DNA of 64,000 nucleotides, from assembly GCA_041737595.1 (NCBI GenBank), contig JBGSRK010000010.1, forward strand, positions 32,001 through 96,000, read 5' to 3'. The position numbers and the translations under genes are program-made. Origin of the DNA: Patescibacteria group bacterium (GTDB lineage Bacteria > Patescibacteriota > CPR2 > UBA1875). Below the pieces are notes generated by a model. The model did not search any database, had not been told where the DNA came from, and saw only the letters and a program-made list of their open reading frames with translations. Positions 1 to 52,942 of this stretch are shown one piece after another; the stretch's first letter is position 1; every line of letters starts with the position of its first letter.

Positions 1-1278
1 TGTTTTAATATCCATATTTTCTATTAGAACAAAAACATCTTCGCTTACTGAACCGGGTGGGAATACTATTAAAATTGACTTATCTTTTGAGGTAACTTCT
101 CCACCATCTTTTTTTGTTACATTATATTTAACACGGTCCATTAATATCTCAAAAGTATTTGAATATTTTGAGTAATTGTTTGCTTCATCTTTTGCTCTTA
201 CCCTATATTTATAATTTTTACCTGGCTCTGCTGTAAAATCTGCATAACTATTTTCATATGATTCATCTATAACTTCCCATTTTTCTTCAGTTTTTAAAGT
301 TCTTTCAATTTCATAACTATAAATACCAATATTATCAGTAGATTCTGTCCAAAAAAGATTAATCGTGGCTTGGTCAGAATTATATTCTCCTTTTAGCCCA
401 CTAGGTTCAGTAGGTGCTTCTGTATCATCAGAATTTGAATCTTCATATGTATATTCTTCTGAATCATAATCTTCGTCAGCATATCCTTCATAGCTGCCTG
501 TCTCGTAATCATAATTTTCATCCGCACTTGGCTCATATTCACTATAATTATCTCCTCCATCAGAATAATCTGGCTCTTCGACAACTGGCTGTGTTGGAGC
601 CACAACCACAGGGGTAGGTTGTACTGATGGGGCTGGAGCGACAACCTGATATGAATTGATTTTTATAGTATAAGCTGTACTCCAACTTTTACTATAACTT
701 GTATGACCTTCTGAATCATAATAATCAAAAGCTCTAGTTCTCCAAACCCAGGTTCCGGGACTTAAAACAACAGTACCACTTGTAACTTCAGTGTTTTGAT
801 TTAAATTTAATTTCCAACCATAATCATTATAGCCACTTGTTTGTTTATTCGGGTAAGAACCACATTTAGGGTGGCTAGAGCTAATATCCCCGGGACAATT
901 AGACACTGGTGTTTTATCTGGATGGTGACCATCTGGGTCTTCGGCGGGCTTAGTACCATAACTTCGCCAAAAAGCTTCAGTTGATCTTCTATACATAACC
1001 TGAACACCAACCTTATTACCATTTGCATCAGTGGCTTTTGCAATAAATCTTACTGATCGAGATGATTCATTTGATAATAAATTTAAAGTAACCGTTGAAC
1101 CATTTGCACTAACAAATGCTCCACCGCTTGGACTATGTTGGATACGGACATTATAAGGGACTGGAGGTACATTTGTTGATGCATTACTTCTAAAACCAAA
1201 TATTGAAATTATACCCCCCATTAGAGCAAAAATAAAAATCAATAATGAAAACTTTTTAAAAAATAATTTCTTTTTCAT
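1..1278 (-). CDS. Secreted protein with acidic linker and fibronectin type III domain (3' end outside window)
   Basis: Absent from the ORF track because it has no stop in the window. ATG at 1278 reads MKKKLFFKKFSLLIFIFALMGG (signal peptide), then a D/E/Y-rich linker and DTEAPTEPSGL...LFWTESTDNIGIYSYEIER...YKYRVRAKDEANNYS (FN3 pattern). Confidence 0.8.
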   Translation of the reverse strand, partial: MKKKLFFKKFSLLIFIFALMGGIISIFGFRSNASTNVPPVPYNVRIQHSPSGGAFVSANGSTVTLNLLSNESSRSVRFIAKATDANGNKVGVQVMYRRSTEAFWRSYGTKPAEDPDGHHPDKTPVSNCPGDISSSHPKCGSYPNKQTSGYNDYGWKLNLNQNTEVTSGTVVLSPGTWVWRTRAFDYYDSEGHTSYSKSWSTAYTIKINSYQVVAPAPSVQPTPVVVAPTQPVVEEPDYSDGGDNYSEYEPSADENYDYETGSYEGYADEDYDSEEYTYEDSNSDDTEAPTEPSGLKGEYNSDQATINLFWTESTDNIGIYSYEIERTLKTEEKWEVIDESYENSYADFTAEPGKNYKYRVRAKDEANNYSKYSNTFEILMDRVKYNVTKKDGGEVTSKDKSILIVFPPGSVSEDVFVLIENMDIKT

Positions 1279-5685: not shown

Positions 5686-6713
5686 TTTATCATCTCTCTT
5701 AATTTTTCTTCTATTTCTTCTGAAATAATACCTTGGGCAGGTTTATATAATCTTTCTACTGACAAATCCTTAACTCCAAAAAGTGACTCTAAAACTAACC
5801 TACCAAACTGGCCAAATGATGATTCTGCAATTAATATTTTTTTAGCATTTTTTACCGCAATCTTTGCTTTTTGTGCTCCAAATGGTTTTAAAGTAATCGG
5901 TCTAAATAAACCAACTTTTAAACCCTCTTTTCTCAATTTTTCAACTGCTTCTCGTGCTGCGCTCCCTACTGTCCCCCAAGCAAAAACTACTACTTCTGCA
6001 TCGTCACACTTTATGACCTCTGATTTTTCAACTTTTGAGCCTATTGCGGCAAAATCCTTTAATTCTCTTAATATTATTTGAGATAGCTCTTCTTCTTGAG
6101 AATAAGTATTTCTAATGTTCACAGGATGATCAAAGTCTAATATTGATTTTGCTGCCTTAACCTTACCAGCTTTTTTTAAAATTACTGATCCCATTGTTTT
6201 TGAAAGATATCCATCACCTAGAACTATAACGGGCAAGCGATATCTGAAGGCCCAATCAAAAGCAAGTATCATAAAATCATATAATTCTTGTAAATTTGAA
6301 GGCCCAAGAACTAACCTCATTGCTTCTCCATTTCCACCCCTTGTAGCAAGATTCAATTCTTGTTGAGAATAAATTACAGTACCGGTTGAGGGACCTCCTC
6401 TTTGACCAATATATGCAACAAATGGAATTCTTTCTGCCTCAGCCATTACAATAGGATCTTGCATAAGAATATGCCCCGCTGCAGCTGTTGCTGTCCAGGC
6501 TTTTTTACCACCAAGCGATGCCCCAAGTAAAGTAAATCCTGCTGATGGTTCATCTTCTGTTTGAAGAAATAATAGTTTTTTGTCTTTTGCAGCCTCCTTA
6601 GCCCAACCAGTTAATATTTCTGTGGTTGGAGTAATAGGGTAACCGAAAAAAGCATTAGCTCCCGCTGCTAAAGCTGCTTTAATAATTATTTCATTCCCAG
6701 TTAATAGCTCGAT
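5682..6713 (-). CDS. 2-oxoacid:ferredoxin oxidoreductase alpha subunit (probable ATC start)
   Basis: The frame stays open 83 codons upstream of the track start (6464) and reads (I)ELLTGNE...FFGYPITPTTE...QTEDE; RGGPSTG lies downstream. AAGGAGG is 5 nt before ATC at 6713. Confidence 0.88.
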   Translation of the reverse strand: MELLTGNEIIIKAALAAGANAFFGYPITPTTEILTGWAKEAAKDKKLLFLQTEDEPSAGFTLLGASLGGKKAWTATAAAGHILMQDPIVMAEAERIPFVAYIGQRGGPSTGTVIYSQQELNLATRGGNGEAMRLVLGPSNLQELYDFMILAFDWAFRYRLPVIVLGDGYLSKTMGSVILKKAGKVKAAKSILDFDHPVNIRNTYSQEEELSQIILRELKDFAAIGSKVEKSEVIKCDDAEVVVFAWGTVGSAAREAVEKLRKEGLKVGLFRPITLKPFGAQKAKIAVKNAKKILIAESSFGQFGRLVLESLFGVKDLSVERLYKPAQGIISEEIEEKLREMIK

Positions 6714-10622: not shown

Positions 10623-11853
10623 TTTTTGACTCCTCTCTTAATAATCCCATTATATCAGCTCCGCGAATATGGCCCAGCCCACCATTTAAACAACTTTTTT
10701 CATTGAATTTTAAACATTTATCATTGTGACCACCAAAAATCATAATTGGTACTGGGTCGTCGCTATGATCTTTTAAAATACAGGGTGTCGCATGATCGCC
10801 CGTAATACATAAAACTCCTTTATAATCTAAAAGTAATTTAAAATATTTATCTGCTTTTTCTAGAAAAGCTATTTTTTTTAGAAAATCTCCCTCTTCTTCA
10901 GATATTAAATCTGTTGCTTTAATGTGCATAAAAACAAAATCGTAGCCATGTTTTAACAATTCAAGTGATTTGGTTATTTTAGCTTTAACATCGGTTTTTT
11001 CATCACCCGTTGCACCTTTTACATTGATTACATCCATTCCCATATATTTTGCTATTCCTTTATAAAGATGGCCTCCAGCTACACAAGCAGCATTAAGATT
11101 ATATTTTTCATAAAATGATGGTATTTCGCCAATGAACCCTGCCCCACGTGTTAATAAAAAATTTGCTGGGAGTATACCACTTAAAACTCTTGCTTCATTT
11201 TCTGAAGCCATATCTAACTCTTGGTGTGTCTTAATTTGATATTCCCAAAGTGCATCTGCTGTCATTTTTGCTTCAATTGAATTATCAATAGGTTCTGGTC
11301 TAATAACTTTATTACCTCCTATATGATTTTTTGCCTTATGAGGATCTGTGTCCATAACAATTGTTGAGTGATGGTGGACTTCTTTAGAAACTGCGGGCCC
11401 TTTTATCACAAGTGTTGCTCGATGTAAGAGTCCAGCGGTTAAATAAAAATCAAATGTATTAATTTTTTTATGATGAATTAAATCAGTTAATGATCTTACA
11501 TCTTTTATATTCCCAGCCCGAGGGTCCAATACTACTAAATTTTCATCCACAGACCCAAAATTTACTCTTAAAGCAAGATCATTTTTACTAAGGTTAATAC
11601 TTATACCAAGGGCTTCGAGTACCCCTCTCCCAGGCAAATACTTTTTATAATCATATCCAAGAATTTCAAAATGAGAATCATCACTTGAAGGATATTCTCC
11701 TTTGGGATGAGCATTTTGGAGACCACACATACTCATTGAAGCAAGTCTATTTAGATTAGGGATTTTTGCCATTTCAAGAGGTGTTTTCCCCCCAAGATCT
11801 GCTATAGGTAAATCTGCTAAACCGTCAAAAATTATAAGTAATATTTTTCTCAA
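10615..11853 (-). CDS. apgM: 2,3-BPG-independent phosphoglycerate mutase, ApgM (archaeal-type) family
   Basis: DGLAD, KTPLE, GRGVLEALG, HIKATD, TGDHATP, HSDDPVP. Confidence 0.88.
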   Translation of the reverse strand: MRKILLIIFDGLADLPIADLGGKTPLEMAKIPNLNRLASMSMCGLQNAHPKGEYPSSDDSHFEILGYDYKKYLPGRGVLEALGISINLSKNDLALRVNFGSVDENLVVLDPRAGNIKDVRSLTDLIHHKKINTFDFYLTAGLLHRATLVIKGPAVSKEVHHHSTIVMDTDPHKAKNHIGGNKVIRPEPIDNSIEAKMTADALWEYQIKTHQELDMASENEARVLSGILPANFLLTRGAGFIGEIPSFYEKYNLNAACVAGGHLYKGIAKYMGMDVINVKGATGDEKTDVKAKITKSLELLKHGYDFVFMHIKATDLISEEEGDFLKKIAFLEKADKYFKLLLDYKGVLCITGDHATPCILKDHSDDPVPIMIFGGHNDKCLKFNEKSCLNGGLGHIRGADIMGLLREESKNV

Positions 11854-46364: not shown

Positions 46365-46440
46365 TGGTGGGCCCGGTGCGGCTCGAACGCACGACCAATT
46401 GCTTAAGAGGCAACTGCTCTACCAGCTGAGCTACGGGCCC
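46365..46440 (-). tRNA. tRNA-Lys(CTT)
   Basis: GGGCCCGTAGCTCAG...TTGC-CTCTTAA-GCAA...GGGCCCACCA. Confidence 0.95.
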
Positions 46441-46586
46441 ACGTCGGAATTCGCTGACGGATTCCGACGTGGGCCAAACCAAGTCTTCATCCTTTCGCAA
46501 ATCCTCCTCTTTCGGCAAAAATCAATAGATTTTGTCGATTTAAAATGAAAATCTGTTGGTTTTCATTTTTGAGGAAGAATAACGAG
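46441..46586 (-). ncRNA. Conserved structured tRNA-leader element, copy A
   Basis: Collinear similarity to 49995..50124; several hairpins. Confidence 0.6.
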
Positions 46587-46635
46587 AAACCGAAAAAAAT
46601 ATATAATTTTGAAGGTTGTCAGTTTATTCTGATGA

Positions 46636-46711
46636 TGGTGCGCCCGGTAGGATTCGAACCTACGACCAATAGCTTAGAAGGCTACTGCTCTATCCCCTGA
46701 GCTACGGGCGC
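46636..46711 (-). tRNA. tRNA-Arg(TCT)
   Basis: GCGCCCGTAGCTCAG...TAGC-CTTCTAA-GCTA...GGGCGCACCA. Confidence 0.95.
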
Positions 46712-46900: not shown

Positions 46901-47575
46901 ATGGACTCAACAATAAAACCACAAAATGAATTTTATACACCTGAAACAGGAATAGTTCCTGGCGCTGAATCTCAGGTCGCTCAGGCTGGACAAGATATTA
47001 GTGCAGAAAATCCATTCCCAAATATCCAACCTTCTGAAATTCTCACAAATACAATGGCTTCAGAGGTTACTCAACCACAGTCAGAATTACCAGTTGAGTC
47101 TGATGATGAATTGGCAAAAGAAATTAACGCTGGGCCAGATTTAAAAGTTGTACCAGACCCTGCAGAAATTTCTATTGATTCTACTTATACTAATGATGTC
47201 CCCGAAGCTACCCCAACAGTGATTGAACCAGCACCAATTGAAACTGTTCAACCCGAAATTGTAGCCGAAACACCTGAAGTAATAGAAGAAGTAAAGGAAG
47301 ATCCAGAAGCAATATTATCAGAAATTGACGAAGACTTTGAAGCTATAGATGGGAAAATTGCAGAATATCTAAGTGCAAACCGAGAAAAAATAACCTCTTT
47401 AGAAGATTCTATTAAAGAGGCCGAAGATAGACTTGAGAATACAAGACTTGCAACAGAACAAAGTATTAAAGATAAAAAAGCTGAAATTGTTGAACTTAAA
47501 AAAATGCGAGACAGAATAAGTGCTTATAAAGAGAGAACTAAAATAAATAAAAATCCTACTGAAATCGCAGCATAA
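46901..47575 (+). CDS. Acidic disordered protein with C-terminal coiled coil
   Basis: 224-aa ORF, GAGGGG SD. Confidence 0.75.
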   Translation: MDSTIKPQNEFYTPETGIVPGAESQVAQAGQDISAENPFPNIQPSEILTNTMASEVTQPQSELPVESDDELAKEINAGPDLKVVPDPAEISIDSTYTNDVPEATPTVIEPAPIETVQPEIVAETPEVIEEVKEDPEAILSEIDEDFEAIDGKIAEYLSANREKITSLEDSIKEAEDRLENTRLATEQSIKDKKAEIVELKKMRDRISAYKERTKINKNPTEIAA

Positions 47576-47589
47576 AATACCCGTGTTTA

Positions 47590-48306
47590 TTATTTTATAA
47601 CGAACCCGATATACCTTGCAGATATATTTTTAGGTAATAAATCTAGTATTTTACCAAAAAAATTTATTACATTTTCTAATATAGAATAGTATCTGCCTTT
47701 TTTGGTTACAAATCTAAAATAAAAATGTCCAACATAATCTGCTTTCGTTAAATTATGGTCAGTTGTCCTGATATATCTTTTTATTTTATTTAGAGACATA
47801 GCATCAGATATATGATTTTCAAGAACCTTAGGTTCTAATATTTTATAAAGAAAATGGTAAAGTGGAGAATTTAGATTTGGAACTTCTATTAAGCATATTC
47901 CATTTTTACCCATTAAATTTAAGTGTTTATCAATTATTTTTGTCCAATTATTAAAATGTTCAATAAATCCAAAAGAACATACTAAATCATATTTTCTAAA
48001 AGATCTGTAATTAAGAAAGTCATTTTTTTGGAATACCCCACATTTATAGTTTTTAGACTTAAACCACTCTTCCATAACATTAATATTTTCGTTCCAATCT
48101 ACACCGTTTATTTCATAGCCCATTTTGCCTATTAAAGCTAGAAATTTTCCTGGATAACAACCTATTTCAAGACATTTTAGATTATCCCCTGTTGGAGTAT
48201 TATTATTTATCCATAAAGCAACAGGATGAGTAGTTATAGTAGCCTCTTTATATATAACTTTTCCCCAATGTTCTTCCCAATAATTAATATCTGTTATTGA
48301 CCCCAT
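47590..48306 (-). CDS. Class I SAM-dependent methyltransferase
   Basis: LEIGCYPG, SFGFIEHF, EVPN. Confidence 0.85.
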   Translation of the reverse strand: MGSITDINYWEEHWGKVIYKEATITTHPVALWINNNTPTGDNLKCLEIGCYPGKFLALIGKMGYEINGVDWNENINVMEEWFKSKNYKCGVFQKNDFLNYRSFRKYDLVCSFGFIEHFNNWTKIIDKHLNLMGKNGICLIEVPNLNSPLYHFLYKILEPKVLENHISDAMSLNKIKRYIRTTDHNLTKADYVGHFYFRFVTKKGRYYSILENVINFFGKILDLLPKNISARYIGFVIK

Positions 48307-48312
48307 AAATTG

Positions 48313-48392
48313 ATTTTAACACAAAAAAGAAACTGTTTAAGGTTTCTTTTTTATAATAATTACTGGGGTCGGATAGTGAGAGATATCAGAAC
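48313..48392. repeat. Cassette boundary 1 (promoter + terminator + tRNA-His-end-like att site)
   Basis: ATTTTAACACAAAAA, hairpin, TGGGGTCGGATAGTGAGAGATATCAGAAC. Confidence 0.85.
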
Positions 48393-48406
48393 CGAGATTT
48401 TTAGAA

Positions 48407-48745
48407 CTATTTAACACACGCTAATATAATAAAAGCAAAAACTGCTAAAGTTATACCAAAATATCCTATTGGCGACAAAACTTCTTTCAAAAATAAAAAA
48501 CTTAATAAATTAACAAGAATAATAGAAAAAGCACCAAACATTGCCATTGTTTTTCCAACTGGCATTGTGGTGAAAACATATAATTGTCCAAATGTTGCTA
48601 CGGTTCTCATTAATGTATATCCCAGAAACCACCAGGTAAGAAATGTTGAAATAGTAAAACCATTTCTTTGCATACCACTTTTTGCTAAGATGTCCCCTGA
48701 GGTAAAAAGAATCTGAGATATTGCTAAAACTATTAACGGATTCAT
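48407..48745 (-). CDS. Small 4-TM DMT/EamA-like membrane protein
   Basis: GDILAK...FLFLKEVLSPIGYFGITL. Confidence 0.75.
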   Translation of the reverse strand: MNPLIVLAISQILFTSGDILAKSGMQRNGFTISTFLTWWFLGYTLMRTVATFGQLYVFTTMPVGKTMAMFGAFSIILVNLLSFLFLKEVLSPIGYFGITLAVFAFIILACVK

Positions 48746-48751
48746 AAAATA

Positions 48752-48831
48752 ATTTTAACACAAAAAGGAACCTAAATCGGTCCCTTTTTGTAATATTTAA
48801 AATGGGGTCGGATAGTGCGAGAAGTCAGAAC
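48752..48831. repeat. Cassette boundary 2
   Basis: ATTTTAACACAAAAA, hairpin, TGGGGTCGGATAGTGCGAGAAGTCAGAAC; same 51-nt internal spacing as boundary 1. Confidence 0.85.
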
Positions 48832-48870
48832 TAAAATAGTACAAAATGCTATTAATTTTGCAAAATTGGT

Positions 48871-49578
48871 TTGATGGTGCTAAAATTAAATATGGATAGA
48901 GACGTCAAACAGATTGAGTCGATTTACGGAAGCAACACCTTCCTGAGCGAACAAAAAGAAAATAAAGAAGTGAAGCACCTAAGAAGGGTGTTTTTTTCGT
49001 TAACAAAGGATTTGCACGGCAAAAGAATATTATTCATTGGTTGTGGTGATGGCGAAGAATCCATCCAATACAGCAAATGTGGTGCAACAGCATATGGTGT
49101 TGATATTAGTCCCTTATTAATCGCGGAAGCGAAAAAAAACAATCCTTTGGGTAAATTTATGGCAGGAGATTTTCGGAATATTGCTATAAAGAACTCTTTT
49201 GATATTGTTGTATCTATTTTGTCACTGCATTACTCAAAAGATTTAAATAACTCGTTTTCAAAAATATACACACTTCTTAAGCCTGGTGGGATTTGCTTGA
49301 TAGCGACCACTCACCCAACCCATAAAATGGTTACATACAACAACGGGAATTATTTTCGAAAAGGTAAGGTTTGGTATGAATGGAAGGGGTTAAAAAGATT
49401 TAATTATTTCTATCTTATAGAAGATTATATAAACGGTTTTGCAAAAAGTAATTTTCAGATAAAAGAAATGCTTGAAGTTTTTACCCCAGTTAAATTCCGT
49501 TCAGTAGAAAATAAAAATAATGAAAACCCTATCTTTACTATATATAAGATTAAAAAACCATTAAATCAAATAGATTAA
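48871..49578 (+). CDS. Class I SAM-dependent methyltransferase (start uncertain)
   Basis: ILFIGCGDG, GVDIS, LLKPGG, THP. Confidence 0.82.
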   Translation: MMVLKLNMDRDVKQIESIYGSNTFLSEQKENKEVKHLRRVFFSLTKDLHGKRILFIGCGDGEESIQYSKCGATAYGVDISPLLIAEAKKNNPLGKFMAGDFRNIAIKNSFDIVVSILSLHYSKDLNNSFSKIYTLLKPGGICLIATTHPTHKMVTYNNGNYFRKGKVWYEWKGLKRFNYFYLIEDYINGFAKSNFQIKEMLEVFTPVKFRSVENKNNENPIFTIYKIKKPLNQID

Positions 49579-49659
49579 TTCTGATAAGGCATCTTCTAGG
49601 GTAAATATTAGAACTAAAAAAGAAGTCCTTTTGAACTTCCTTTTTAATCTTTTCAAAAC

Positions 49660-49737
49660 TGGGGTGGCTGATGGGATTCGAACCCACGACCCTCGGCACC
49701 ACAAGCCGATGCTCTAACCAACTGAGCTACAACCACC
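49660..49737 (-). tRNA. tRNA-His(GTG), G-1 encoded
   Basis: G-GTGGTTGTAGCTCAG...TCGG-CTTGTGGT-GCCGA...CAGCCACCCCA. Confidence 0.95.
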
Positions 49738-49741
49738 ACGT

Positions 49742-49818
49742 TGGTGCGCCCTGAGGGATTCGAACCCCCGGCCTTCTGGTCCGAAGCCAGACGCTCTATC
49801 CAGCTGAGCTAAGGGCGC
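49742..49818 (-). tRNA. tRNA-Arg(TCG)
   Basis: GCGCCCTTAGCTCAG...CTGG-CTTCGGA-CCAG...GGGCGCACCA. Confidence 0.95.
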
Positions 49819-49841
49819 ACATTTTTTAGTTTCTTATATAT

Positions 49842-49916
49842 TGGAGCGGGTAAGGAGAGTCGAACTCCTGTCTTCAGCTTGGAAGGCTGACATAATAGCC
49901 ACTATACGATACCCGC
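49842..49916 (-). tRNA. tRNA-Gly(TCC)
   Basis: GCGGGTATCGTATAG...TCAGC-CTTCCAA-GCTGA...ACCCGCTCCA. Confidence 0.95.
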
Positions 49917-49918
49917 AT

Positions 49919-49994
49919 TGGTCGGGGAGACAGGACTCGAACCTGCGACCTCATGGTCCCAAACCACGCGCGCTACCAGCTGCGCCACTCCCCG
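49919..49994 (-). tRNA. tRNA-Pro(TGG)
   Basis: CGGGGAGTGGCGCAG...CGTGG-TTTGGGA-CCATG...CCCCGACCA. Confidence 0.95.
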
Positions 49995-50124
49995 TCATCG
50001 TCGAAATCTGCTTATGAGTTTTGACATGGCCATCCAAGTCTTAACCCAACTGCAGTTTCTCCTCTTAGAACAAAATCAACAGATTTTGTTCTTTTGAAGC
50101 AAATTACAAACAAGTTATAACGAG
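49995..50124 (-). ncRNA. Conserved structured tRNA-leader element, copy B
   Basis: Similar to 46441..46586; begins just after TTGATA-17 bp-TATAAT. Confidence 0.6.
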
Positions 50125-50164
50125 GATAATTATAACCGATTTATAGCTATTTATCAATAAATTT

Positions 50165-50189
50165 AAAAAGGAGCCAGTGGCTCCTTTTT
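50165..50189 (-). terminator. Intrinsic terminator after hup
   Basis: AAAAAGGAGCC-AGT-GGCTCCTTTTT. Confidence 0.8.
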
Positions 50190-50190
50190 A

Positions 50191-50463
50191 TTATCTAACT
50201 TCTTCTTTTAAACCTTTACCAGCACGGAAACGAGGAAGTTTCATACTTGGTATAGTGATTTCTTTCCCAGTTTGAGGATCACGTCCTCTGCGTTTAGCAA
50301 TTTGCCCAAGATAAAATGTTCCAAATGAAGTAATAGAAACTTTTTCGCCTTTTTTTATTTTTTCAGTTATTGATTCAACCATGCTATTCATTATTTTTTC
50401 AATTTCTCTTTTTGAATGGCCGGTCTTTGTTGCAAGTTCTGATACTAATTCTCTTTTTGTCAT
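50191..50463 (-). CDS. hup: DNA-binding protein HU
   Basis: MTKRELV, FGTF, RRGRDPQTG, PRFRAGKGLKE. Confidence 0.93.
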   Translation of the reverse strand: MTKRELVSELATKTGHSKREIEKIMNSMVESITEKIKKGEKVSITSFGTFYLGQIAKRRGRDPQTGKEITIPSMKLPRFRAGKGLKEEVR

Positions 50464-50531
50464 TTTTACTCCTTTTATTTCAACTTAAATATTTTATCAA
50501 TCGTTTATCCCTATGTCAAAGGATTTTTTTA

Positions 50532-51320
50532 TTATTTATCAATCCTTTTAATTTTTATTGGTTTAAATTCTTTATCAAATGAAATTAAAACTGAATTAAA
50601 AACACCTTTTCCATCGGCTACTTCAAATTTACCACCTGTACCCTTTATAAATCGTTCAAGTATAATTTCGCTTTTAACTCCAAGCACAGAATTTTTTGGA
50701 CCTGTCATTCCAACATCTGAAATATAAATGGTACCATTTTTTAGAATCTTTGCATCTGCTGTTGGAACATGTGTGTGAGTACCAATTACTGCTGATATCT
50801 TACCATCTGCATGAAACCCCATTGCAACTTTTTCTGATGTCATTTCTGCATGAAAATCTAGAATTGAAATATCATAATCTTTTTTGCTAGCAAGGATTTC
50901 ATCAAGTTTTTTAAATGGGTTAGAAGTTTTTTCATTTATTCCTTCTTTACCAAGAAGATTTATTATTAACAACCTGCCGAAAGAAGTTGTAAGAACACGA
51001 TAACCGTGACCTGGATATTTAGAGGTAAAGTTTGCTGGTCTTAAAACAGGCATTCCTTTTTTTGCGATATCTGTAATAAATGATTTTTCTCTCCAAACAT
51101 GATTACCTGTAGTAAAAAAATCTATTCCCACTTCGTGCATTTCAAGTAAAATATCGCGGTTAACACCTACTCTTTCAGAAAGATGTTCACCATTAGCAAT
51201 AACATAATCAATCTTATATTTTTCTCTTATTATCGGTAAATATTTTTTTACAGTATCTCGACCAGCTTTACCTATAATATCTCCGATAAATAATATGTTT
51301 ATTTCTTTTTTTGAGGTCAT
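50532..51320 (-). CDS. ymdB: YmdB-family metallophosphoesterase
   Basis: FIGDIIG, TGNH, DFHAE.TSEK, GTHTHVPTAD, DVGMTG. Confidence 0.93.
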   Translation of the reverse strand: MTSKKEINILFIGDIIGKAGRDTVKKYLPIIREKYKIDYVIANGEHLSERVGVNRDILLEMHEVGIDFFTTGNHVWREKSFITDIAKKGMPVLRPANFTSKYPGHGYRVLTTSFGRLLIINLLGKEGINEKTSNPFKKLDEILASKKDYDISILDFHAEMTSEKVAMGFHADGKISAVIGTHTHVPTADAKILKNGTIYISDVGMTGPKNSVLGVKSEIILERFIKGTGGKFEVADGKGVFNSVLISFDKEFKPIKIKRIDK

Positions 51321-51371
51321 TTTTTTCCTTCTTCAGTTAGATACTGATCCATTTATAATGGAAACCCCTGT

Positions 51372-52895
51372 TTATTTTGCGTATTCTACTGCCCTCGTCT
51401 CACGAATAACATTTACTTTAATTTGACCTGGATATTTAAGATCAGACTCAATTTTTCGGGCTACTTCTTTGGCTAATTTTTCAGCACCAAGATCGTCTAT
51501 TGCTTTAGGAGTAACCATCACACGAACTTCGCGGCCAGCTTGAATTGCAAAGGCTTTTTCAACCCCTTCAAAAGAAGTAGCTATGCCTTCTAGCTCAGTT
51601 AAGCGCTTAATATAATTATCCATTGAGTCTCTTCTTACCCCTGGGCGAGATGCAGAAATTGCATCAGCTGAAAGAATAATAATAGCTTCAACGGTTTTTG
51701 GTTCAACATCTTCATGATGAGCTTCAACTGCATGTTGTATTTCTTCAGAGATTCCATATTTTTTACAAATATCTCGAGAAATAATAGCATGAGAGCCAGT
51801 CATTTCTTGATCAATTGCTTTACCTATATCATGCAGGAGACCAGCTTTTTTCGCAATTGCAACATCTGCACCCATCTCAGCAGCCATTGTACCTGCAAGG
51901 TGTGCTGTTTCGATTGAGTGATCTAATACATTTTGAGAAAATGAGGTTCTAAATTTTAAACGGCCAATAACTTTTAAAAGTTCAACTGGAAGCCCAGCAA
52001 CACCAGTTTCATAGGCTGCTCTTTCTCCGGCTTCTTTAACAATTTTATCAATATCAGCTTGTGCTTTTTCAACAGCTTCTTCAATTTTTGAAGGATGAAT
52101 GCGACCGTCTGCTATTAAACGTTCTAGAGTTAGCTTAGCAACTTGTCGACGAACAGGGTCAAAACCTGAGATAACAATAGTTTCTGGAGTATCATCAACA
52201 ATAATATCGCAACCAGTTAATTTTTCGATTGCTTGGATATTTCTTCCTTCTCGGCCAATTATTCTTCCTTTCATTTCATCGCTTGGTAGGGTAATTGCAG
52301 TAACTGTGGATTCGGCGGTTTGATCTGAAGAAAGTCTTTGAATAGCAGTTGCAATTATTTCTCTTGCCTCTTTGTCTGCATCTTCTTTGGCGTCATCTTT
52401 TACTTTTCTAATTCTTTCAACAATATCTTTCTTATAATCTTTTTCTACCATTTCAAGTAATTTTTTTTGAGCATCGTCTTTTGAAAGTTTAGAAATCTTT
52501 TCTAAATTTTTTTCTTGTTTTTCTCGTAGGTCACGAAGATAATTTTTGTTTTCATCTATCTCTGCTTTATCTTTTTCTATTGCATCTCTTTTTGTGTCAA
52601 TATCTGTTAATTTTTTATCAATTGATTCTTCTTTGATCGCAAGTCTTTTTTCCAGGTCTAATAGGTCTGATCTTCTTTCCTTTTCTTCTTTTTTTGCAAT
52701 GTCAGTAATTTTTGAGGCTTCTTCTTTTGCATTAAGAATTGTTTCCTTTGCTTCGGACTTTGCGCTATCAATTACTTTTTGGGCCTGGGCTTCAGCATTT
52801 GAGGTTTGTGTTTTTGCTTTTACGTTGCGCGCCACCCAACCAGAAACACCCCCAGCCGTAAGCCCGACTACAAGCCAAACTAATATCGGTGTCAT
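51372..52895 (-). CDS. rny: Ribonuclease Y
   Basis: N-terminal TM, coiled coil, KGRIIGREGRNI (KH), LLHDIGK (HD); ATG at 52895 after AAGGAG. Confidence 0.96.
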   Translation of the reverse strand: MTPILVWLVVGLTAGGVSGWVARNVKAKTQTSNAEAQAQKVIDSAKSEAKETILNAKEEASKITDIAKKEEKERRSDLLDLEKRLAIKEESIDKKLTDIDTKRDAIEKDKAEIDENKNYLRDLREKQEKNLEKISKLSKDDAQKKLLEMVEKDYKKDIVERIRKVKDDAKEDADKEAREIIATAIQRLSSDQTAESTVTAITLPSDEMKGRIIGREGRNIQAIEKLTGCDIIVDDTPETIVISGFDPVRRQVAKLTLERLIADGRIHPSKIEEAVEKAQADIDKIVKEAGERAAYETGVAGLPVELLKVIGRLKFRTSFSQNVLDHSIETAHLAGTMAAEMGADVAIAKKAGLLHDIGKAIDQEMTGSHAIISRDICKKYGISEEIQHAVEAHHEDVEPKTVEAIIILSADAISASRPGVRRDSMDNYIKRLTELEGIATSFEGVEKAFAIQAGREVRVMVTPKAIDDLGAEKLAKEVARKIESDLKYPGQIKVNVIRETRAVEYAK

Positions 52896-52942
52896 TTTCT
52901 CTCCTTTTCTCAACACTTAAAAGGCGGTTGAGTATAAGCCGC

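Follow-up and report, generated by a model that had tools for sequence, protein, structure and literature searches.

The tRNA-His locus

The stretch of DNA analysed here, called the window throughout, is 64,000 nucleotides long and comes from a patescibacterial genome. It contains a tRNA-His(gtg) gene (49660..49736, minus strand; ARAGORN, Rfam tRNA 68.4 bits) beside which two single-gene units are stacked, each bounded by a copy of a short conserved site. These sites, the genes between them and the family of serine integrases that carries the same sequence are the subject of this analysis. A preliminary description, made from the letters alone, had reported repeated boundaries 439 bp apart, and this spacing is recovered in two pairs of repeats: 48304-48334 matches 48743-48773 over 31 nt (87% identity) and 48347-48392 matches 48786-48831 over 46 nt (76% identity). 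The two boundaries span ~90 bp each and include 29-bp sites (48364-48392 and 48803-48831) that agree, as described, at 26 of 29 positions and differ at three. On the plus strand both sites start with TGGGGT, as does the tRNA-His 3′ end. The frames proposed for them are also correct: the sites read WGRIVRDIRT and WGRIVREVRT, and the tRNA-His junction reads TGG GGT GGC TGA, which is WGG followed by a stop.

The site is rare in this genome. A 15-mer from its start has exactly two copies in the window; with up to three mismatches allowed there are three matches against 0.39 expected, and none of 100 shuffles gave three. A site profile run on the whole 1.09-Mb genome returns these two copies only (E 9.7e-9 and 1.2e-7; next match E 2.1), so the site is not a dispersed repeat. 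Both boundaries have the same order on the minus strand: the conserved site, 11-13 nt, a strong hairpin, the extended −10 motif TGTGTTAAAAT, 6 nt and an ATG. The motif stands exactly 6 nt ahead of the minus-strand ATGs at 48306 and 48745, which confirms an earlier observation. Its relaxed form, TGTGYTADAWT, has 12 copies in the genome, three of them with an ATG at +6, and two of these three are the boundaries; the promoter-like motif is therefore not part of the general syntax of the genome. Folding gives −12.0 kcal/mol for the hairpin at site 1, −19.6 at site 2 and −17.0 at tRNA-His (z −4.6, −6.3 and −4.9), in keeping with the terminator hairpins that had been proposed at all three places. 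The boundary hairpins are flanked by A and T runs, and a simple terminator scan calls the tRNA-His hairpin alone, probably missing the other two because it extends the stem into these runs.

Site 2, nearer to the tRNA, is delimited by the profile at 48803..48838 (plus strand; E 1.7e-8) and reads WGRIVREVRTKI in the frame of the integrases described below. Its first 30 bases are exactly those of the site in the related genome G004, and it has GAAC at +26..29. The arm to its left (48746..48802, minus strand) consists of a spacer, a hairpin at 48760-48791, TGTGTTAAAAT at 48752-48762 and the 6 nt leading to the ATG at 48745. Site 1, the outermost, lies at 48364..48399 (plus strand; E 1.4e-9) and reads WGRIVRDIRTEI; its arm (48307..48363, minus strand) has the same parts, with the hairpin at ~48324-48359 and TGTGTTAAAAT at 48313-48323, 6 nt from the ATG at 48306. 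The sequence common to the sites and the tRNA consists of the last six encoded bases of tRNA-His (49660-49665). The spacer and terminator hairpin downstream of the tRNA occupy 49612..49659 (minus strand; seen by folding and called by the terminator scan).

Unit 1, of 439 bp, holds a gene for a 112-aa four-helix membrane protein (open reading frame (ORF) 48407..48745, minus strand) that is probably translated without a leader. The public contigs of both sequencing runs with the region break at 48502-48584, inside this gene, and the summed depth there shifts slightly (11.8 to 8.5 and 6.6 to 5.7), which may reflect strain variation. Unit 2, 857 bp from core to core, holds a gene for a class-I S-adenosylmethionine methyltransferase in the orientation opposite to the tRNA (48871..49578, plus strand; Methyltransf_11, E 9e-18). 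Another class-I methyltransferase gene lies just outside the outermost site, with its promoter in the arm of site 1 (47590..48306, minus strand; Methyltransf_23, E 2e-14). The preliminary description was right about the two methyltransferases; its term 'EamA-like' for the membrane protein is loose, the weak matches being to NIPA (E 1.2e-4) and SMR (E 6e-3), both under the Pfam cut-offs. The outer methyltransferase gene is either a native neighbour of tRNA-His or an older unit minus its site. Neither the sequence nor the site profile gives a site at 47576-47589, beyond this gene, and in G002 a homologue of the 224-aa flank gene directly adjoins the outermost site.

Two simple identities for the site were considered and rejected. 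A small ORF at the sites has no start codon, and at site 2 there is an in-frame stop 12 nt upstream. A tRNA 3′ fragment is not found there by ARAGORN, and inspection by eye gives no T-arm pairing. A permissive Rfam search of 47400-50200 finds four tRNAs, the remainder being at chance level, and a search by eye for dyad symmetry or a left-arm zinc-ribbon motif gave nothing convincing.

Integrases with the site in their last codons

The site recurs in the coding sequence of an integrase. Genome G025, of the same class, encodes a 549-aa large serine recombinase (LSR) with Resolvase, Recombinase and Zn_ribbon_recom domains and the tail ...HWGRIVCDVRTE... / ...KTEALTSVLTHWGRIVCDVRTEMILQV. The last codons of this gene, which include ...WGRIVCDVRT..., are a copy of the site, and a second copy with 28 identical bases lies 6.8 kb away. 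A recombinase ending in WG(R/G)...RT had been anticipated for the window's sites, and the G025 enzyme is of this kind, while integrated relatives end in WGG and a stop. The further suggestion that these are serine-integrase sites, with attP in the integrase's own 3′ end, is likewise upheld by G025 and other family members.

The family is large, with 4918 proteins at E<=1e-20 among 8000 scored, and 557 relatives occur in one-genome-per-species bacterial contigs. It is almost absent from a viral contig collection, where there are 52 relatives, two of them close and both N-terminal pieces at contig ends. A rough sorting of the best 120 proteins by the residues that follow the conserved ...KTEALASVRxRW separates three kinds of tail. 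Native tails of the form W-x-x-I/V-V/W-x-x-V/I-R-T are found in 12, with two more added by eye; 63 have tails like W..R.DSNP, the antisense of a tRNA T-arm; and 32 stop 2-3 residues after the W, three of these ending WGG, which is the reading of the window's tRNA-His junction. Of the 80 genomic LSR frames examined, 64 terminate within, or directly adjoin, a tRNA or tmRNA gene in antisense (Asn 15, Gln 13, His 10, Trp 10, Ser 6, Asp 3, Met 2, Ile 2, Arg 1, Glu 1 and tmRNA 1), and the other 16 are mostly contig run-offs or DSN-type tails without an ARAGORN call. One LSR on a 636-kb contig (L132, 10001-11680) has a native-type tail, WRGIVNDVRT..., and the 10 kb downstream of it contain no tRNA; it has either entered by some other route or resides there in the attP configuration.

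Complete elements connect the integrase with the site. Two of the ten LSRs integrated at tRNA-His, L066 (~10.1 kb) and L139 (~10.2 kb), have a hairpin-preceded site at the far end; the other eight loci have no site within the 10 kb fetched. A 5.7-kb element on a metagenome contig (L150) has the same build, again with a hairpin-preceded site at its far end. In all three the integrated element is flanked by attL (B arm and P′ arm) and attR (P arm and B′ arm). Genes on complete elements include DUF5659, a Toprim primase-like gene, SpoVG, a type III restriction-modification pair and a Panacea antitoxin, and the cargo genes lie at the P′ end, pointing toward the site. An enzyme with Resolvase, Recombinase and zinc-ribbon domains is thus linked to the site in G025, L066, L139 and L150; none is linked to it in the window's own genome. 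Viewed on the tRNA strand, the last conserved codons of the integrase (KTEALASV) form a hairpin with a U-run, 10-12 nt past the tRNA end, in 8 of 11 tRNA-His-type genes (z <= −2.8 in these eight, weak in the remaining three). Since this hairpin lies inside the integrase codons, the element appears to bring a terminator for the tRNA.

The right-hand arms, to which the following comparison is confined, relate the site to the tRNA. The sites, the tRNA-His ends and the LSR junctions have only the 6 bp TGGGGT in common. A GAAC motif, counted from the T of TGG, occupies +26..29 in 34 of the 43 distinct sites; in all 26 tRNA-His genes examined it occupies +21..24. For LI integrase, Rutherford et al. 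(PMC3783163) found the zinc-ribbon motif 5 bp closer to the centre of attB than to that of attP, so the position of GAAC, 5 bp further out in the site than in the tRNA, points to the site as a P′ half-site and to the acceptor and T-arm region of the tRNA as a B′ half-site. The GAAC-type motif encodes the R-T of the integrase tail, and native tails at other tRNA targets hold R-T at the same place. From these features, the site is predicted to be the P′ half of the attP of a tRNA-targeting LSR family, and tRNA-His is predicted to be the attB for the sites, with its body as the B′ arm and a shared core of 6 bp. Crossover would then fall within TGGGGT.

The left arms complete the assignment. The left sides of the orphan sites hold little position-specific information, and many of them share a module that consists of the reverse complement of the promoter, a AAAAAGAG-type hairpin and a T-rich spacer. 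A profile of 42 orphan left arms matches 14 of 26 distinct tRNA-His 3′ flanks at E<0.01, including those of site-free genomes such as G011; the window's own flank (49612..49659), kept in G004 and G014, scores E 0.013. The lowest score in the flank set belongs to L150, its sole integrase-occupied junction. The same profile has no match among the 3′ ends of 80 integrase genes (a reversed control gave two chance matches), and descent of the orphan left arms from an integrase 3′ end was rejected on this ground. Because the left arms resemble native tRNA-His flanks and not LSR ends, the orphan sites are best read as attL (B arm, core and P′ arm), and the comparison marks the tRNA-His junction of the window as an intact attB, with 49612..49659 as its B arm. 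As judged from the arms, the order in the window appears to be attL, unit 1, attL, unit 2, attB (tRNA-His), in which the arms of sites 1 and 2 are B-type.

A short degenerate element, made up of the core, ~6 nt and TAGAAC and accompanied by a near-identical hairpin, adjoins tRNA-His at 49595-49616 in the window and in L017 (~1878-1900) and L045 (~6262-6285). It is present in the window, G004 and G014 and kept across two families, in a weaker form in the window. The window copy (49595..49616, plus strand), directly before the tRNA-His terminator, is a possible decayed short site seen by eye only and has no site-profile score. It could represent either an ancient P′ arm with an internal deletion or a piece of the native attB.

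Two other explanations can be weighed against these data. It is very improbable that the site is an RNA element of the tRNA strand, be it a 3′ end that mimics a tRNA or a signal for processing or stability of the upstream mRNA. On the minus strand the site is in every case bracketed by a stop codon and a terminator and ends ...CCCCA like tRNA-His, as such an element might, but it has no Rfam family match, no ARAGORN tRNA and, by eye, no consistent hairpin within it; its sequence is that of the integrase C-terminus frame and of the far end of integrase elements, and its copies are confined to the tRNA-His locus. Least probable of all, to the point of being hardly credible, are displaced tRNA 3′ fragments of tyrosine-integrase islands or a simple tandem duplication. 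A position 3′ of a tRNA together with direct repeats is the classic tRNA-island signature (Islander paper, PMC4383910), but here only 6 bp are shared with the tRNA and there is no copy of its 3′ part, the sole tyrosine recombinase of the genome (PF00589) is on another contig (C67), away from the array, and the linked recombinase is a serine enzyme. As the intervals hold unrelated genes, the array is not a tandem duplication.

Taken together, the arms and the linked enzymes make it likely that the sites are P′ half-sites left by a tRNA-His-targeting serine integrase and that they bound two integrase-less single-gene inserts. In the free element, attP would span the last dozen integrase codons (...W|GRIVxDVRTE...). 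The Trp codon TGG would be the antisense of the tRNA CCA, and TGGGGT that of the six final tRNA-His bases. Recombination in the 6-bp core would set the integrase against the tRNA, where its frame would stop after WGG, and the P′ half would come to lie at the distal end of the insert, fused to the former downstream flank of the tRNA, that is, to a B arm of spacer, terminator and promoter.

Arrays in relatives and the origin of the units

Sites recur in relatives of the window's genome. Under a strict pattern, 3 of the 5 family genomes and 8 of the 28 order genomes have the site; a looser pattern gives it in 17 of the 32 genomes in the class, where a reversed control pattern gave none. The matches in L031, L035 and L041 have no context, look like chance and were rejected; after the removal of contextless matches, 15 of the 32 genomes have sites, all of them mapped. 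These 15 genomes hold 28 sites at E<=0.01, with one to four per genome. In 14 of the 15 the sites lie 3′ of tRNA-His and in tRNA orientation, 43 nt to 7.5 kb away; the exception is G028, where the site is across the tRNA cluster, adjoining tRNA-Arg. Successive sites usually enclose one ORF, co-oriented with the tRNA and with its stop codon adjoining the site. The cargo downstream of tRNA-His, a comparison called for at the outset, is unlike between the 15 genomes and includes GDPD, GNAT, HIT, NUDIX, DUF1653, pyrophosphatase-like, ceramidase, cation-efflux and AAA_14 ATPase genes and many genes without a family. Two outcomes had been named in advance as speaking against mobile units, identical cargo with no recombinase and simple tandem duplication; neither was seen. 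Flanks can be kept, as with a DUF5667 gene after the last site in G025, G015 and G017. The 19 metagenome contigs with the site are similar, and L155 and L156 have as many as five consecutive sites. A gene-less unit in G015 (L046), where the site lies 43 nt after tRNA-His, indicates that ordinary deletion also acts on the arrays.

Several features lie in or beside these arrays. In G008 (L043, minus strand, ~1866-1923) a site copy has an insertion of ~20 nt with a small hairpin between its conserved start and the remaining P′ arm. Between tRNA-Arg(tcg) and tRNA-His, G015 (L046, 1028-1504) has a 158-aa ORF with an HNH_3 endonuclease motif and G025 (L042, 10905-11381) has an ORF of the same length; these may be a homing-endonuclease-like insert within the tRNA cluster. 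Just past the array, a tRNA-Lys(ctt)/tRNA-Arg(tct) pair occurs in the window (46365-46711) and, in the opposite orientation, in G021 (L052, 3327-3484). A block of HU, YmdB-like phosphoesterase and RNase Y genes lies past the tRNA-Pro end of the tRNA cluster in the window (50191-52916) and, in G004 (L053, 2185-4860), on the tRNA-His side, where it ends at an orphan site. This placement suggests that the tRNA cluster has been inverted or transposed with respect to the DNA on either side.

Turnover at the sites can be followed between contigs. Over 861 site pairs, two have a common right side and unrelated left sides (91% and 99% identity over the 100 nt beyond the site), four have a common left side and unrelated right sides (80-95%), and the junction of this one-sided homology falls within -1..+9. 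With unrelated left arms, similarity on that side can only end at the border of the conserved site, so that modular joining is what is seen and not the exact crossover point. Contig L155 and contigs L045 and L161 have flanks that are 89-97% identical and differ in their units, with one extra unit beside the tRNA and three versus one further out. In L155 and L145 a whole junction of ~90 bp is conserved between different gene pairs. When an LSR profile was run against six-frame fragments of the 15 arrays, the intact G025 gene was the only match, and there is no LSR remnant in any of the 14 LSR-less arrays.

The preferred route to such arrays, suggested by the structure of the arms, is tandem accretion with alternative excision. 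Integrase-bearing elements would deposit units by tandem integration and would then excise from a different attL, with units captured or left behind in the process. For accretion and cis-mobilization of this kind, the canonical reactions attP × attB and attL × attR would suffice. Alternative excision would account both for the B-type arms and for the lack of integrase debris. Over the 43 sites, mismatches to the consensus number 96, 59 and 138 at codon positions 1, 2 and 3 of the LSR frame, and the P′ arms may keep this coding-like pattern because, on the accretion route, they serve in turn as integrase tails.

Two other routes to the same arrays merit attention. The first, in line with the preliminary description, holds that minimal non-autonomous cassettes exist as free one-site circles and are inserted at tRNA-His by a serine integrase in trans, in an integron-like manner; it is possible, though we doubt it. 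The units are strikingly regular, mostly with one ORF, its stop by the site, then a terminator and a promoter, in rows of up to five sites, and the ~90-bp junction conserved between L155 and L145, the lack of LSR remnants and the existence of rare helper LSR elements fit such circles well. However, the site of a circle would be attL-like, and in the published model serine integrases do not pair attL with attB (PMC3783163). The helper is absent from this genome, gene-less units such as that of L046 show plain deletion, and neither a circle nor a deletion joint is present in the contigs examined: those of three runs of one study, one run possibly being from the source sample, contain no circles and no joints that skip 439 or 857 bp. 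Since contigs cannot reveal rare forms, this absence weighs neither for nor against free circles. The second route, that the units are the remains of complete integrase islands serially integrated at tRNA-His and decayed by deletion in place, is poorly supported, and we regard it as unlikely. Complete elements do hold cargo at the P′ end pointing to the site, as the units do; genomes of ~1 Mb would be under reductive pressure; gene-less units and the short degenerate site exist; and decay is the usual route to cis-mobilizable elements (CIMEs; PMC5704250). But decay would be expected to leave P arms beside the tRNA and at inner sites, where the arms are B-type and only the occupied L150 junction is P-type. 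Moreover, LSR fragments number 0 in 14 of 14 LSR-less arrays, and several whole units distinguish contigs whose flanks are 89-97% identical.

Accretion and the attachment-site assignment on which it builds have several observations to contend with. The window's genome has four LSR genes, all at most 34% identical to the G025 enzyme and none with the tail motif, although one is cut by a contig end. Across the class, a tRNA-His-type LSR occurs in one of 32 genomes (G025), and the two other full-length family members, in G001 and G007, are at tRNA-Met, that of G007 being broken by a stop. Contigs of two runs of one study contain the assembled arrangement only, with no recombination seen. The third-position excess of mismatches fits one minus-strand frame equally well. 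Between L155 and L045 one break of homology lies ~35 nt left of a core, just after the short degenerate element that is also present before tRNA-His in G004 and in the window. Finally, the G025 layout places an LSR with a native tail so that one unit stands between it and the tRNA. The canonical reactions cannot yield this order, so attL × attB, attP × attL or an assembly error is needed, and the layout is the product that free circles would give by recombination of an attL-type site with attB. A broader proposal for the small-genome bacteria of this class would have P′-ended, promoter-bearing single-gene units captured, deposited and reshuffled at the 6-bp tRNA-His core by rare helpers, with orphan sites that are live, attL × attB included, and with helper tails taken from the landing site. 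We put it forward tentatively, as a conjecture with the odds against it.

Without a cognate integrase in the assembly, the array is at present static, and its working parts now are predicted to be a terminator and a leaderless promoter for each gene. The LSR closest to the G025 enzyme (33% identity) starts at 11536 of contig C80 and runs off the contig; the last 55 nt of C80 are an inverted copy of ~11270-11324, an assembly artefact, and the C-terminus is not covered. A further LSR gene (contig C36, ~89416-90561) has an in-frame TGA inside the match and is a pseudogene or two genes.

Comparison with known systems

The logic of LSR attachment sites, tandem accretion and integrase-less segments bounded by attachment sites are all already known. 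The sites described here resemble those of the A118/LI, Bxb1 and phiC31 type in having a Resolvase/Recombinase/zinc-ribbon enzyme, short sites and a minimal core, in an attP half-site that is longer than that of attB with its outer motif 5 bp further out, and in the hybrid sites that flank integrated elements. They differ in that the target is the 3′ end of a tRNA gene and in that attP spans the integrase's own last codons, so that each recombination would change the C-terminal tail of the enzyme; in 8 of 11 cases these last codons also double as a terminator-like hairpin for the tRNA. SSV-type archaeal integrases have attP inside int, and mycobacteriophages undergo integration-dependent C-terminal switching; both use tyrosine enzymes. 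The likeness to these systems lies in an attP within coding sequence and a protein that is altered by integration, but SSV int is split mid-gene, whereas here ~12 terminal codons are exchanged. Islands made by tyrosine integrases at tRNA genes should have a repeat of at least ~15 bp of the tRNA 3′ part and a tyrosine integrase at the tRNA-proximal end, in contrast to the 6 bp and the serine enzyme found here.

In a literature search that covered main texts outside subscription journals, no description was found of a clade of serine integrases at tRNA 3′ ends with attP across their own stop region, of tail exchange at each recombination, or of single-gene attL arrays at tRNA-His in genomes of ~1 Mb. 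The word 'tRNA' has no occurrences in the available text of the LSR survey of Durrant et al. The analysis identifies a large and widespread clade of serine integrases on tRNA and tmRNA ends, whose attachment sites can be read from the last codons of the integrase together with the tRNA, which is useful for the annotation of islands in uncultured lineages. Natural attP/attB pairs can be chosen in the same way from integrase tails and tRNAs, and the system offers a simple test of the use of attL-type sites by serine integrases. It also shows how genomes of ~1 Mb can maintain, at a single locus, a small complement of accessory genes that changes quickly, while keeping no recombinase.

The preliminary description had proposed an integron-like array at tRNA-His, and the appearance is indeed that of an integron: ordered single-gene units, a recombination site by the 3′ end and content that varies among relatives. 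Membership in the integrons is not borne out. The array is without IntI, attI or attC hairpins, each unit has its own promoter, and the recombinase, usually missing from the genome, is a serine enzyme. A Pfam scan of the 15 arrays found no tyrosine recombinase (PF00589), and for an attC-like fold the conserved +1..+35 block has no internal inverted repeat, the hairpin lying outside the block and being variable in sequence.

A further parallel is with CIMEs and tandem accretion of the ICESt1 type at the 3′ end of a tRNA or other gene, in which integrase-less segments bounded by attachment sites are likewise stacked at a conserved target. CIMEs can be mobilized when an integrase-bearing element integrates beside them (PMC5704250). 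On the preferred route, the arrays would be the equivalent of CIME accretion with a serine integrase in charge. The layout of the arrays fits this scheme, and units are shuffled at sites between contigs, while mobilization was seen in none of the contigs examined. Tandem accretion is also familiar from the composite islands of the staphylococcal cassette chromosome, which have Ccr serine recombinases. The arrays differ from CIMEs in that each of their units is one gene of 0.4-1 kb that has a promoter and a terminator to itself, their arms are B-type and not decayed element ends, and the recombinase is a serine enzyme aimed at a tRNA, in hosts with genomes of ~1 Mb.

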